Shown piece by piece: positions 44,697-55,081 of a stretch of 64,000 nucleotides of DNA. Source of the DNA: a virus. A program made the position numbers and the translations under genes. The DNA is taken from positions 96,001-160,000 of IMG/VR virus record IMGVR_UViG_3300050821_003907; one strand, 5' to 3'. Below the pieces are notes generated by a model. The model was not told the origin of the DNA and did no database searches. It saw only the letters and a list, made by a program, of their open reading frames with translations. How positions within the stretch are numbered: position 1 is the first letter of the stretch; each line of letters begins with the position of its first letter.

Positions 44697-45527
44697 TTAG
44701 GCGACACTCTTCCGGCGAGACTTAGGCTTGCTCTCGTTCTTGGCATCGATGGTCTGCTGGATTGCAGTCATCATGTCGGTGAACGCAGCAACGCCCTGGT
44801 CCGGAACCGCCGCATCAGCAGTAACATGCGTGGGACCGTCCTGAATCTTGGCCATGACCAGCTTCTCAAGGCGCTCAGCACTTTCGTCCTTGTGCTGCGA
44901 GAAATCAAACTCGTCATCAGACAGAGTCTCGATAAGCTGGTCAGCCAGCGAGTTTTCCTTGTCCGAGAACGTAGCGCTGGGGGCCTCAAAATCTGGCCGC
45001 GTCACGTCATTGCCCCAATGGAGCTGGGACAGAACCAGGTAGCCCTCCGCGTCCGGCGACAGGATGGCCAGGTGAACGCTGTCGCGCATCGCGAAGCGAA
45101 GCACCCCGACCTTTCCAGCGCGCTTCAGCGCGGCGTGCAGCAGGGCGTAGCCCTTGTCACCGCCATCACCGGGCTTGACGTGATAGGACTTGTCGATAGC
45201 CTGAGCGGGAATGTCAGACGCCTTGGCGAACGTTACTATTTCCCCGCAGTGCCGCTCATCCCCCTTGATTTCCTCTAGTTCCGAGTCCGTGAGCAGGACG
45301 TTGCCACCGGGAATCTCGAAGCCACGCCCGATGTCCTCCCAGCGAACCTCGTTAAGGTCGCCCTTCTCCCGGTCAGCCTTGGCAACACGCACGTACTCGA
45401 TACGAGAGCCGTCAGACTTCCGCAGCATGTGCAGGCCGCCGTTCTTGTTGCTCGGGACTACAGAGCCAAGCCGGACGGGCAGGGAGAAGGGACCGAAGGA
45501 AAAAACACCCTTGAATGCGGTATGCAT
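44697..45527 (-). CDS. ku: Ku DNA end-binding protein (NHEJ)
   Basis: FKGVFSFG..SLPVRL, LHM..DGSRI.Y, WEDI.RGFE, DKSY...P.GG.KGYALL..AL....KVGV.RFAMR, L.L.QLHW..DV. Confidence 0.92.
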   Translation of the reverse strand: MHTAFKGVFSFGPFSLPVRLGSVVPSNKNGGLHMLRKSDGSRIEYVRVAKADREKGDLNEVRWEDIGRGFEIPGGNVLLTDSELEEIKGDERHCGEIVTFAKASDIPAQAIDKSYHVKPGDGGDKGYALLHAALKRAGKVGVLRFAMRDSVHLAILSPDAEGYLVLSQLHWGNDVTRPDFEAPSATFSDKENSLADQLIETLSDDEFDFSQHKDESAERLEKLVMAKIQDGPTHVTADAAVPDQGVAAFTDMMTAIQQTIDAKNESKPKSRRKSVA

Positions 45528-51097: not shown

Positions 51098-51364
51098 TTA
51101 TCCTCCTAGTTGGTGAGCGCCCTCTTCAATGAGAGCCATTACCATTGTCGAAGCATTCGTTTCCCGGTACTCACCTAGTAGCCATCGCTTGAGCATTCCC
51201 TCGCTCGTACGCTCAGGGTCATACGGTGCCAGGTCGTAAAAGCGAATAATGAAAATAGCCAGCACTTCTGCTGTGCTCTCAGCCTCTGGCCCCTTGCATG
51301 AATTCACCTGCTCTTGCGCAACCTGAAAAGAATCTACCAGATAACGGTTACGGTGGAACGTCAC
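51098..51364 (-). CDS. hypothetical protein
   Basis: Coupled ORF. Confidence 0.5.
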   Translation of the reverse strand: MTFHRNRYLVDSFQVAQEQVNSCKGPEAESTAEVLAIFIIRFYDLAPYDPERTSEGMLKRWLLGEYRETNASTMVMALIEEGAHQLGG

Positions 51365-51822
51365 AGCGTGTCCCCTTCACCCAGAAGTGCCGTCAGGCCC
51401 TCGTCAAGGTTCAGGTACTCCAGTTCCTCGCCAGCGGGCACTAGCTTGTAGATGTCGTTGATGAAAGCGTCAACTAGCTTCTCGTTCATGACGAACTGGG
51501 CAACGCCGTAAGGCGAAGTTAGCGTCATGGAAATGAGCTTTCCTGCACCAGTCAGCGAGAACAGTGCGCTCTTGTCCTGAATCAGGCCAGCCGGTGATAT
51601 CTTAACGTCCCCATCACCACTGGGCTTAGTCAGGCCGTCCCTGAGCAGGTCACGCGAGAACGTCCACACGACAGGGCCATCCATACCGGTGTTGAAAGTG
51701 ACTTCCACGGCATGGGGGTCGGCAGTGGTGTAAACGAAATGCGCGCTGAGGACAACAGCAGCCTCATTCATGAGGAGGCGAACAGGAACATCCTTGCGCA
51801 CGACCACAGGACTACTCATCAT
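51361..51822 (-). CDS. ssgA: SsgA-like sporulation/cell-division protein (SALP)
   Basis: YTTADPHAV...F..G...V.W.FSRDLL.DGL..PSG.GDV.I.P...L.SP.G.A....F....VP.GEE...LNLD. Confidence 0.9.
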   Translation of the reverse strand: MMSSPVVVRKDVPVRLLMNEAAVVLSAHFVYTTADPHAVEVTFNTGMDGPVVWTFSRDLLRDGLTKPSGDGDVKISPAGLIQDKSALFSLTGAGKLISMTLTSPYGVAQFVMNEKLVDAFINDIYKLVPAGEELEYLNLDEGLTALLGEGDTL

Positions 51823-52150
51823 AAGTTTCCTCTTCTCCTAGTTCCGGCGAGCTACCCGACAGTGAAAGGATAAGCTTCCGGAATTCCCAGGGGGTGATTC
51901 CTGCCTCTTGCAGGCAAGCCTCGGGGACTACCGCGTTCACCAGCTCAGCAAAGCCAAGCCATGTCATCGCGAACAACCCGCCCTCTGAGAAGTCCAGGTG
52001 AACGCGAGTAGCGGTTGTTCCCACGGCAAGCTCAACATTCGGGCAGCGTGAAGTAGCGCGGTTGTTCTTCCTGCTTAGCTTTCGTGTTCCCTTAATTATT
52101 ACCATCGCGTCTTCCGCTCTCACGACTCTCTGCAACCAGGATTGACGCAC
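51812..52150 (-). CDS. hypothetical protein
   Basis: Overlaps ssgA-like start. Confidence 0.45.
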   Translation of the reverse strand: MRQSWLQRVVRAEDAMVIIKGTRKLSRKNNRATSRCPNVELAVGTTATRVHLDFSEGGLFAMTWLGFAELVNAVVPEACLQEAGITPWEFRKLILSLSGSSPELGEEETYDE

Positions 52151-52255: not shown

Positions 52256-52690
52256 TTACCTAACCTCATTATCACAGTCGTACCAGGGTGGGTCAGGTTG
52301 CAGCAAGCGAAGGTTTGCGTTTACCTTGGCCAGTTCCAGTTCAGCATTCTTGATGTCGTCGTTAAGCTTGTCCAGCCTTTCATTCTTGCGAGCAGCCTTG
52401 CGCTCAGCGCGCGGCATTGGCTTGGTGTTGAACCAGCGTCCTAGTCCGGTGCCGATAATGGTGTTCTTGATGCCAAGAACCGCGAGTGTAGGAGGTGCGC
52501 ATATCGGCCACGTAAGCGCGAAAAGCGCAACGGGAATCCATGCCTCCTCAAGGTCAGCTAGGTCCTCCATGCAGTAATCGCCGTTAATAAACCACCAGCC
52601 GACACGCTTAACTGAAACACCAGCACCGACGATGTACGCGACAACAGAGAATACCCACCAGAAGATTGTAAGCGTCACACCCTGCTCCAT
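52256..52690 (-). CDS. membrane protein with coiled-coil tail
   Basis: Two TMs, WP motif, coiled coil. Confidence 0.6.
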   Translation of the reverse strand: MEQGVTLTIFWWVFSVVAYIVGAGVSVKRVGWWFINGDYCMEDLADLEEAWIPVALFALTWPICAPPTLAVLGIKNTIIGTGLGRWFNTKPMPRAERKAARKNERLDKLNDDIKNAELELAKVNANLRLLQPDPPWYDCDNEVR

Positions 52691-52871: not shown

Positions 52872-53414
52872 TCATTCGCTTACCCTCCTGCCGTTAGGTG
52901 CATGCTTGTTAGCATTTTGCTCGGCTTGAGTGGCCCAGCGAACATTACCCGGTTCGTAGTTACCGTTGTTGTCCAGGCGGTCTAGTGTATGACCTTTAGG
53001 TCTAGGCCCTAGATTAGCCTCTAGCCACGTTACGAACGCTAGCGCATCTTCACGCCATTCCTCACACACCTGAATACCGCGTCCGCCATAGTGCTTATAG
53101 TTGTGCGCACCGACATCGTAACAACGCCTGCGCATGTTAAGCCATGTTTTGTAGAGAGGATGCTTACTGCTAAGCCCATGTGCTTCACCGAAGCCTTTGA
53201 AGCTGAGAAGTTCCCCGTCCACATAATCTTCTTTCCAGCAACCGCAACTCTTAGAGTGCCCGTTATTTAGCTGGAAAGCTAGAATGTCGCGTTCAGTTCC
53301 GCATTTACACCTACACGGTACCCAGCGGCGGAAGTGCCCCCGCTTATCAGGGAGCGTGTAACTATCACCGATGACAGTCCATCTATTGAACTCATCACCA
53401 ATAAGCGGGGGCAT
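52872..53414 (-). CDS. HNH homing endonuclease
   Basis: CRCKCG..SKSCGC..YKTWLNMRRRC..YGGRGIQVC..W..TLDRLDNNGNYEPGNVRWAT. Confidence 0.9.
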   Translation of the reverse strand: MPPLIGDEFNRWTVIGDSYTLPDKRGHFRRWVPCRCKCGTERDILAFQLNNGHSKSCGCWKEDYVDGELLSFKGFGEAHGLSSKHPLYKTWLNMRRRCYDVGAHNYKHYGGRGIQVCEEWREDALAFVTWLEANLGPRPKGHTLDRLDNNGNYEPGNVRWATQAEQNANKHAPNGRRVSE

Positions 53415-53431: not shown

Positions 53432-54022
53432 TCAGGTACCGGGGCAGCCGTCTGCTTGCCAAGCGCCACCACCGGAGTTGGCGTAAATCTGGCCCGCAAC
53501 CTGCTCCTGCTGAGCAAGGCTGTCACCCGAAACGTTATACCCACTCGCCGGGATGATGCCGAACACGTTACCGCCAGCGGCGGGGTTAGTGCCGTTCGTG
53601 GACTCGCGGTAGGCGATGCAGTTCGCCATGGACGAGGACATGCCGGGGATGTTGTAGCCACCCGAGCCACCGCTAGAGCTACCGCCAGACGACGAGCCGT
53701 CGCTAGGCGCGGGAGCGCTGCTCTGGGAGCTGCCCGATGAGGACGAGTCTCCCGAGACGATGGCCGACGAATCACCGGAGGTGTCCGTGCTCACCGACGA
53801 CGGGGACGGGGAAGACTCAGCAGGCGCGCTAGCGCTGCCACCGCCTGAAAGGTTAATCGACTCGCCGATGTAAATGAGATTGGGATTGCCAATCTGAGGA
53901 TTGGCCGCTTCGAGCTGGCTCAGCGAGACGCCGTTGCTAGCAGCGATGCCGCTTAGCGTGTTGCCCGACTGAGTCGTGTAGACAGAAGCAGCAAGTGCGA
54001 GTGCATGAAACATGAAAAGCAT
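53432..54022 (-). CDS. LysM plus Rpf-like/transglycosylase-like secreted muralytic enzyme
   Basis: LysM YTTQSGNTLSGIA..NPNLIYIGESINL; Ser/Gly linker; CIAYRES..G.FGI..QQEQVA..IY..GGGAW..C. Confidence 0.75.
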   Translation of the reverse strand: MLFMFHALALAASVYTTQSGNTLSGIAASNGVSLSQLEAANPQIGNPNLIYIGESINLSGGGSASAPAESSPSPSSVSTDTSGDSSAIVSGDSSSSGSSQSSAPAPSDGSSSGGSSSGGSGGYNIPGMSSSMANCIAYRESTNGTNPAAGGNVFGIIPASGYNVSGDSLAQQEQVAGQIYANSGGGAWQADGCPGT

Positions 54023-54111: not shown

Positions 54112-54393
54112 TTACAGCACGCGCCGGTAGGCGGCAAGATTCGAAAGGGCTTTATCTAGGCGTGGGACAGCCGTGTGTATTTCCCGCATTGCCTCGTTCA
54201 GGATGTTTTCCATTCGCTGAATGTCGTCAGCAGTAGTGTTGCGGATGCCGAAAGCAATCTCTTCTAGCGCTTCGCAGGCTTGCGCGATAACGAAATTAGC
54301 TTTGCTAGTGTGCTCACTAGCCTCATCGAGAGGGTTATAAGCTTCCATTCCCAGCCGGATTTGCTCTTTCCAGTTATCATTCATTTCAGTCAT
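54112..54393 (-). CDS. hypothetical helical protein
   Basis: Coupled ORF. Confidence 0.55.
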   Translation of the reverse strand: MTEMNDNWKEQIRLGMEAYNPLDEASEHTSKANFVIAQACEALEEIAFGIRNTTADDIQRMENILNEAMREIHTAVPRLDKALSNLAAYRRVL

Positions 54394-55081
54394 TTCGTTG
54401 CGCCTTTACAGGTACGTCGCGAGTCTTCAGCTTCATCACAAGGCGCTCACCGCCGCGCGTGAAGAGCGGAACAGCAGGCGTGCCCACTACTCCCTCAATC
54501 ACAACGCCGCGCTTGTGCCAGTACGACAGGAACGTGCCGCTCTTGATGGCTTCCCACGCTTCTACCGGAGAATATATCCAGTAAATTTCGGGAACCAGGC
54601 CGATTTCGAAGTAACGCGCTACGTCCTTAACGTCTTCAGGGGTGAGCCACCACTTACCGACGCGCACGTCGAACAGGATGAAGCTAACGTTATCCCGGTA
54701 CAAGCCACCGCCCTTCTGAATTCGTGGCCCGTAGCCCTCACCGTAAAGCGTGACAGACGGCTTCTCGCCGTCAGTGAACAGGAATTTCTTCTCCCACTTA
54801 CTGGCGTCAAGCAGGCCCAGGTTGCGGATTGCTTCTGTCAGGTGCGCGGGCATCTGCGCGTTGTCGGTTCGTCCACCGAGAACTACGCTCTCGCCGTTCC
54901 AGTAAAGACGGGTGTTCGTGCCGTCAATTTTCTCTGTCCAGCGCCAGGGGCGGTCCTTCAGGTACGCGAATTCCGGCAGGGACCAGTCCCATTCAATGAT
55001 GGGGTTGTTCTTGGCGTCGGTGTCCCGCTTGAACGCTGTGTGGATTTTGTGGTATGGAGGACCAAAGGGCGAATCCGTCAT
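54386..55081 (-). CDS. RNA ligase-like nucleotidyltransferase (Rnl2-like)
   Basis: YHKI..FKR, TEKIDGTN (motif I KxDG), LYGEGYG, FILFDV, EGVV, MKLK. Confidence 0.85.
   Translation of the reverse strand: MTDSPFGPPYHKIHTAFKRDTDAKNNPIIEWDWSLPEFAYLKDRPWRWTEKIDGTNTRLYWNGESVVLGGRTDNAQMPAHLTEAIRNLGLLDASKWEKKFLFTDGEKPSVTLYGEGYGPRIQKGGGLYRDNVSFILFDVRVGKWWLTPEDVKDVARYFEIGLVPEIYWIYSPVEAWEAIKSGTFLSYWHKRGVVIEGVVGTPAVPLFTRGGERLVMKLKTRDVPVKAQRND

Follow-up and report, generated by a model that had tools for sequence, protein, structure and literature searches.

An SsgB-like SALP in a lineage of large soil actinophages and its possible role in host septation

Genome setting and conserved neighborhood of the SALP gene

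The DNA analyzed here (the window, 64,000 nucleotides) comprises bases 96001-160000 of a virus genome of 181,160 bp that is 98% complete (IMG/VR record IMGVR_UViG_3300050821_003907). On its minus strand lies a gene of the SsgA-like (SALP) family (Table 1), the only SALP gene detected in a search of the whole genome. It belongs to an unbroken run of small genes in the leftward arm, which occupies about 118 kb to about 178 kb of the genome; up to about 117 kb, the genes point rightward. The genome has a GC content of 54.7% and a bank of 34 tRNA genes (genome positions 9.3-14.1 kb), and it encodes a large terminase, portal, major head protein, head-tail adaptor, primase, and DNA polymerase, together with a tape measure (a 2843-aa open reading frame in the tail region). 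It also carries a ribonucleotide reductase gene and a GT2 synthase/GH5 module. The relatives of its terminase are overwhelmingly from actinophages (Mycobacterium, Gordonia, Arthrobacter, and Rhodococcus) at identities of 35% or less, and no close DNA-level match was obtained among cultured phages.

Tyrosine and serine integrases were sought in the genome and none was found, so a temperate lifestyle was dropped, and the proposal of an earlier sequence-only reading that the phage might persist in spores cannot rest on lysogeny. The phage lineage is apparently large, soil-dwelling, and lytic. A search of the same genome for WhiB, Lsr2, Rpf, and tubulin/FtsZ revealed no recognizable development gene of these kinds that would support a wider development-hijack program.

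Both immediate neighbors overlap the SALP gene (Table 1), which, as these junctions read, is predicted to be translationally coupled to them. The overlap with the upstream 97-aa gene recurs, with a length of 8-11 nt, in three related phage contigs (L002, L004, and L006), where the orthologs of the 97-aa protein are 87, 44, and 41% identical. This protein matched no Pfam or PHROG family, is represented by only two clusters among 5.8 billion proteins, with no relatives outside this phage lineage, and yielded a poor AlphaFold2 model (pLDDT, 61). A reading of this protein as a second, degenerate SALP was rejected, as the profile-profile comparison with the SALP alignment was not significant (probability, 0.25%). 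The 97-aa orphan protein is a possible partner of the SALP. For the downstream 88-aa protein, which had no Pfam matches, orthologs occur in L002 (64% identity), L006 (40%), and L004 (32%), and orthologs of the LysM protein are found at the corresponding place in L002, L004, and L006 (60-62%) and in a fourth related phage contig, L007 (44%). Three long contigs share one gene order: the LysM gene, a few orphans, the 97-aa gene overlapping the SALP gene, the 88-aa gene, and, later, Ku. In L007, a ricin-GH5 glycanase gene directly precedes the SALP gene. Promoter and terminator consensus sequences near the SALP gene were as numerous as in shuffled sequences and so give no indication of the timing of its expression.

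The interval upstream also contains genes that vary among these contigs. The HNH endonuclease gene is missing from this place in L002 and L004 and has a 77% identical copy at that position in L006; it resembles a mobile, homing-type insertion. The 144-aa orphan occurs in L002 as two diverged copies in tandem.

Table 1. Features at and around the SALP locus (window coordinates unless another contig is named; motif positions are residues of the window protein)
Feature	Position	Strand	Remarks
Ku homolog	44958-45500	minus	Pfam, 103 bits; same leftward arm as SALP gene
Downstream 88-aa orphan gene	51098..51364	minus	GTG start overlaps SALP TGA (GTGA, 4 nt)
SALP gene	51361..51822	minus	153 aa plus stop; predicted SsgB-like fold; Pfam SsgA match
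Motif DPHAV	35-39
Motif WTFSRDLLRDGL	53-64
Motif GDGDV	69-73
Motif LTSPYG	100-106
Motif VPAGEE	128-133
Clade-variable loop insertion, residues about 78-95	51538..51591	minus	From alignments; between two strands, not in SsgB
Shine-Dalgarno-like AGGAGAAGAGGA stretch	51826..51840	minus	Few bases 5' of SALP ATG; read from sequence
Upstream 97-aa orphan gene	51812..52105	minus	3' end overlaps SALP start by 11 nt
Ortholog of 97-aa gene	L002:9718-10011
Ortholog of 97-aa gene	L004:5742-6008
Ortholog of 97-aa gene	L006:5730-6008
144-aa orphan gene	52256-52690
Tandem copies of 144-aa orphan	L002:8653-9569		74% and 41% identical
HNH endonuclease gene	52872-53414	minus	PHROG 374, E 3e-51; between LysM gene and 66-aa gene
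LysM/transglycosylase-like protein	53432..54022	minus	Pfam LysM; PHROG transglycosylase/endolysin
RNA ligase	54386-55081	minus	33% identical to Sham gp198; leftward arm
Sham gp205 (SALP)	L014:107377-107748

An exhaustive HMMER search of 1.84 billion representative proteins retrieved 1684 SALPs at E ≤ 1e-3, only four of which are more than 45% identical to the window protein (83, 50, 49, and 46%). All four are encoded on phage-like metagenomic contigs, 163.5, 76.8, 52.3, and 4.5 kb long, that originate from several soil samples, the 83% ortholog being that of the 163.5-kb relative L002. Comparison of the window gene with this ortholog gave a dN/dS of 0.10 at a near-saturated dS of about 1. The shared position and this low ratio show vertical inheritance in the phage lineage under purifying selection. 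A word-based homolog search returned only the window protein itself and one ortholog, and a search of viral contigs with the window protein alone found nothing outside its own lineage.

Family membership and predicted structure

The window protein matches Pfam PF04686 (SsgA) with an E value of 7.1e-25 and 87.2 bits, against a cutoff of 25, and covers profile positions 2-98 of 98. All five SALP motifs are present (Table 1), and sequence matches extend to the SsgB proteins of T. fusca (PDB 3CM1; E 4e-20) and S. coelicolor (6SLC; E 8e-18). The SALP match is far above chance; in PHROGs, no family matched. The sequence-only reading had described a phage-encoded, SsgA-like regulator of septation or sporulation, and the family match, the five motifs, and the genuine phage genome bear out a phage-encoded SALP. 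"SsgA-like" is correct as a statement of family membership, with the qualification that the SsgB/SsgG type is nearer than SsgA itself. The protein has the small, single-domain format of the family, at 153 aa versus the usual 130-145 aa or so, and shares the acidity of cellular SALPs (pI 4.5; net charge about -9). SALPs are also characterized by a chromosomal location in a morphologically complex actinomycete, whereas this gene sits on a phage genome, which is a feature of distribution and not of the protein.

An AlphaFold2 model built with 113 homologs (pLDDT, 90.7; pTM, 0.84) consists of seven strands plus helices; the SsgB fold is recognized by a beta-sheet covered by three helices. The top eight Foldseek matches in the PDB were all SsgB chains, with target-normalized TM scores of 0.83-0.89 (0.85-0.89 against 6SUJ, 6SLC, and 3CM1). 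From this model, the window protein is predicted to share the SsgB fold. The lowest model confidence within the domain falls on the loop at about residues 78-95 (block means of 65 and 85), whose length in the five members of the phage clade described below ranges from 0 to about 14 residues.

SsgB is the archetypal SALP, which recruits FtsZ. The window protein resembles it (S. coelicolor 6SLC/6SUJ; T. fusca 3CM1) in its predicted fold, acidity, and single domain and in conserving the equivalents of V37, R55, L57, V115, G118, and E120. In contrast, the two share only 31-33% identity, and the window protein is phage-encoded and carries about 14 extra residues in an inserted loop. In S. coelicolor SsgB numbering, all residues conserved across the family are kept (Y29, D33, P34, V37, F41, W51, R55, L57, L58, G67, G69, D70, V71, P75, P91, G93, V115, G118, and E120). 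The departures from SsgB are at Y35 (His), L96 (Gln), and H121 (Leu), all outside this family-wide set. The position of Y35 holds Tyr or Phe in every cellular SALP aligned here and H, Y, C, L, and Y in the five clade members, the His being that of the window protein. The position of L96, hydrophobic in cellular SALPs, is polar in all five (Q, N, N, T, and S).

The functional residues of S. coelicolor SsgB were mapped by Xiao et al. in 2021 (PMC8061694). In that work, Y35H, V37A, L57P, and L97P each abolished sporulation, and L96P, V115G, G118V, and E120G tilted the septa (PMC8061694). Additionally, L96P weakened binding to SsgB and SsgA, and the angle of helix alpha3 was found to be fixed by R55, V115, E120, and Y35 (PMC8061694). 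The effect of L96P may come from the proline itself rather than from the lost hydrophobicity. The FtsZ-binding surface of SsgB is unmapped, and so retention of FtsZ binding by the window protein is not readable from its sequence.

Relation to cellular and phage-borne SALPs and the probable host

The seven SALPs of one genome, Streptomyces sp. NPDC006551, served as the reference, and four of them were labeled. SsgB was labeled by its sequence match to the 6SLC alignment and SsgD by the NCBIfam equivalog NF052496 (236 bits against a 185-bit cutoff). SsgA was labeled by an IclR-type gene directly upstream, in keeping with the established ssgR-ssgA arrangement, in which ssgR is the IclR-type gene immediately upstream of ssgA. 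"SsgG-like" is an inferred name for the paralog closest to SsgB. The window protein scored highest against the SsgG-like reference (90 bits; 36% identity), followed by SsgB (82 bits; 32%), SsgA (72 bits; 32%), and SsgD (66 bits; 33%). An SsgD identity, suggested by the only NCBIfam match, was rejected at 77.3 bits on the SsgD model against the cutoff of 185. Orthology to SsgA was likewise rejected, as SsgA scores below SsgG-like and SsgB and the phage gene is flanked by orphans and not by an IclR-type ssgR. SsgB orthologs are near-identical within Streptomyces and 46% identical between S. coelicolor and T. fusca; the window protein is 32% identical to Streptomyces SsgB and has no supported place within the SsgB group.

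In a 47-sequence maximum-likelihood tree, the five SALPs from uncultured phages formed one clade (UFBoot 99; SH-aLRT 88) that branches from the unresolved SsgB-like backbone without a supported sister, and a 145-sequence tree agreed. Judged by these comparisons, the clade is closest to the SsgB/SsgG type (32-40% identity) and appears to be an ortholog of neither SsgA, SsgB, nor SsgD. Of the placements that the earlier reading had set out for a SALP phylogeny (SsgA, SsgB, or a phage clade), a separate clade of these five phage proteins was recovered and orthology to a named paralog was not. Among the known phage SALPs, those of Sham and Ankus grouped together and that of Dagobah stood alone on a long branch. 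Forcing all nine phage SALPs into one clade cost 53 log-likelihood units and was rejected (AU p = 0.003), in a test that involves long branches and a constrained group chosen after the first tree. Consequently, SALPs have probably been captured by phages more than once.

A homolog of ssgA in the Streptomyces phage Dagobah was described by Hardy et al. in 2020 (PMC7650747), and ssgA was listed among actinophage development genes by Luthe et al. in 2023 (PMC10117723). Dagobah gp31 (HUN42_00031, QMP84409.1), named "SsgA family sporulation/cell division regulator" in GenBank, is, like the window protein, a phage SALP with one domain and about 150 aa, encoded among small nonstructural genes. However, Dagobah is a 47-kb phage, and a tblastn search with the window protein did not pick up its SALP. 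The window phage also resembles the BE-cluster phages (Stanwilliamsviridae; SALPs Sham gp205, Patelgo gp216, and Faust gp210) and Ankus, Byblos, and DekoNeimoidia, which are lytic actinophages of large size (about 120-130 kb) and low GC content, rich in tRNA genes, with the SALP in a small-gene block. The SALP gene of Sham, like that of the window phage, has an RNA ligase gene about 3 kb upstream (33% identity between the ligases). In contrast, the SALPs of the BE cluster and related phages are only 27-35% identical to the window protein, form a separate clade, have a far stronger acidic character, and are shorter, that of Sham having 123 aa. In about 25 BE-cluster and related Streptomyces phages, these proteins are named only "hypothetical protein" in GenBank, and a search of the literature turned up no functional work on a phage SALP. 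In Sham, an Lsr2-like gene lies about 1 kb downstream of gp205.

Other viral SALPs were also encountered. A strict DNA pattern for WxFxRDLL...GxGDV run over IMG/VR retrieved five SALP-bearing viral contigs, a lower bound on viral SALPs. Four of the five, contigs L045-L047 and L049 (IMG/VR; 37, 55, 104, and 119 kb), have 68-74% GC and SALPs only 28-33% identical to the window protein. The SALP of MT838510.1 ("Bacteriophage sp.," 5175 bp, from a human fecal sample; L016) clusters with the only SALP of a Nocardioides metagenome-assembled genome (MAG; L022), the phage and gut origin of MT838510.1 being unverified.

Of 401 Actinomycetota genomes sampled, 14 gave a SALP match, most of these 14 being 7-10 Mb in size, in agreement with the restricted distribution that the sequence-only reading had given for the family. 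Every cultured phage found with a SALP infects Streptomyces, and the nearest cellular proteins are metagenomic sequences plus one protein of a Streptosporangiaceae MAG. A filamentous actinomycete with SALPs of its own is the most likely host. The expected narrowing of host range therefore extends to SALP-bearing actinomycetes and stops short of a single genus.

Possible roles in host septation

SALPs are positive regulators of FtsZ placement in filamentous actinomycetes. We consider it reasonably probable that the window gene encodes a functional SsgB-like SALP, captured by a phage ancestor, that mimics host SALPs to alter septation, probably by interference. Capture would have taken place in the ancestor of the large, roughly 54% GC soil actinophage lineage, and purifying selection would have retained the gene. 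Mimicry would rest on the predicted SsgB fold and on the kept core that sets the alpha3 angle (equivalents of R55, V115, G118, and E120), combined with changes at surface or interface positions (L96 polar clade-wide, Y35 variable, and the added loop). We infer that the protein would engage the FtsZ/SsgA/SsgB septation machinery of the host and alter the site or occurrence of septa in infected hyphae. Sporulation septation or cross-wall formation may be blocked in this way, which would keep a large, metabolically active compartment and prevent host escape into spores. The GC content of the phage, far under that of typical SALP-bearing hosts, counts against the host-mimic reading.

The earlier reading had left the direction of the effect as either a push or a block. 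Activation of septation by the phage SALP, as with SsgA overexpression, would fit equally well. Blocking nevertheless looks more likely than promotion. Interference is favored because the scaffold is kept while positions of SsgB-SsgB and SsgB-SsgA contact are changed and because large nonsporulating compartments would benefit a phage. The interplay of phage infection and Streptomyces development is known (PMC10117723, PMC7650747): development aids the containment of infection (PMC10117723), and a phage WhiB that blocks septation offers a precedent (PMC7650747). Such a WhiB, that of mycobacteriophage TM4, is a phage copy of a host developmental or division regulator that interferes with septation (PMC7650747), although it is an unrelated Fe-S transcription factor acting on whiB2 transcription and not a member of an FtsZ-recruiter family.

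The protein might act more specifically as a decoy SsgB, a proposal that we regard as tentative and rather doubtful. Such a decoy would have kept the fold and probably FtsZ binding, would have lost localizing contacts, and, coproduced with its coupled orphan partner, would inhibit sporulation septation in a dominant-negative manner. The change of L96 to polar residues, the relaxed Y35, and the added loop would have cost the contacts that localize SsgB. If true, the decoy would be a phage countermeasure to the developmental containment of infection in Streptomyces.

Some cellular SALPs, SsgD-G, act in spore-wall synthesis and autolytic separation, and an action of the phage SALP on cell-wall remodeling instead of FtsZ placement has to be weighed. 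Together with the LysM/transglycosylase-like protein and polysaccharide genes, the SALP would then direct peptidoglycan synthesis or hydrolysis, whether to bring about lysis, to fragment and thereby disperse infected hyphae, or to change the surface against superinfection. The LysM/transglycosylase-like gene always lies a few genes upstream of the SALP gene, the ricin-GH5 glycanase gene of L007 immediately before it, and a GT2 synthase/GH5 module in the same genome; wall-related SALP paralogs have also been described (PMC8061694). This role seems unlikely all the same, since the window protein scores higher on SsgB/SsgG-like paralogs than on SsgD and reaches only 77 bits against the 185-bit cutoff of the SsgD model, the LysM-SALP linkage spans more than 1.5 kb with several orphan genes in between, and no mode of SALP action on wall enzymes is known.

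Even less credit can be given to a repurposing of the whirly-like fold, by which the protein would bind single-stranded nucleic acid or a phage protein in replication or repair. Distant Foldseek matches to the Whirly/PBF-2 and Pur-alpha nucleic-acid binders (E about 3e-3 to 1e-2), the presence of Ku and RNA ligase in the same arm, and the conserved tight coupling to an orphan partner gene are consistent with it. However, this reading is weakened by the strong acidity of the protein and by the poor quality of these structural matches (TM about 0.3), and the retention of all SALP-specific motifs argues for a SALP-like set of partners. Finally, a recently captured passenger without a role for the phage, as might be imagined in a region with many small orphan genes that also takes up mobile HNH genes, is ruled out by purifying selection at near-saturated dS and by a position shared by five contigs diverged to 46% identity, and the intact frame, Shine-Dalgarno stretch, and coupling, together with a phage-like composition of about 54% GC unlike that of a high-GC host, make it still harder to entertain.

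Phage SALPs have been in the published record since 2020 (Dagobah), and the SsgB-like SALP of the window represents one more lineage. What is added here is a conserved synteny with predicted translational coupling, purifying selection of considerable strength, evidence of repeated acquisition by phages, and clade-specific changes at functionally mapped SsgB positions. Sporulation and compartmentalization are now viewed as part of the multicellular defense of Streptomyces against phages. Under the favored reading of interference with septation, phage-borne SALPs would be natural variants selected by phages to act on the septation machinery. Since the clade changes fall at positions relevant to SsgB function, these proteins may provide ready-made separation-of-function variants for the contacts of SsgB with FtsZ, SsgA, and the membrane.
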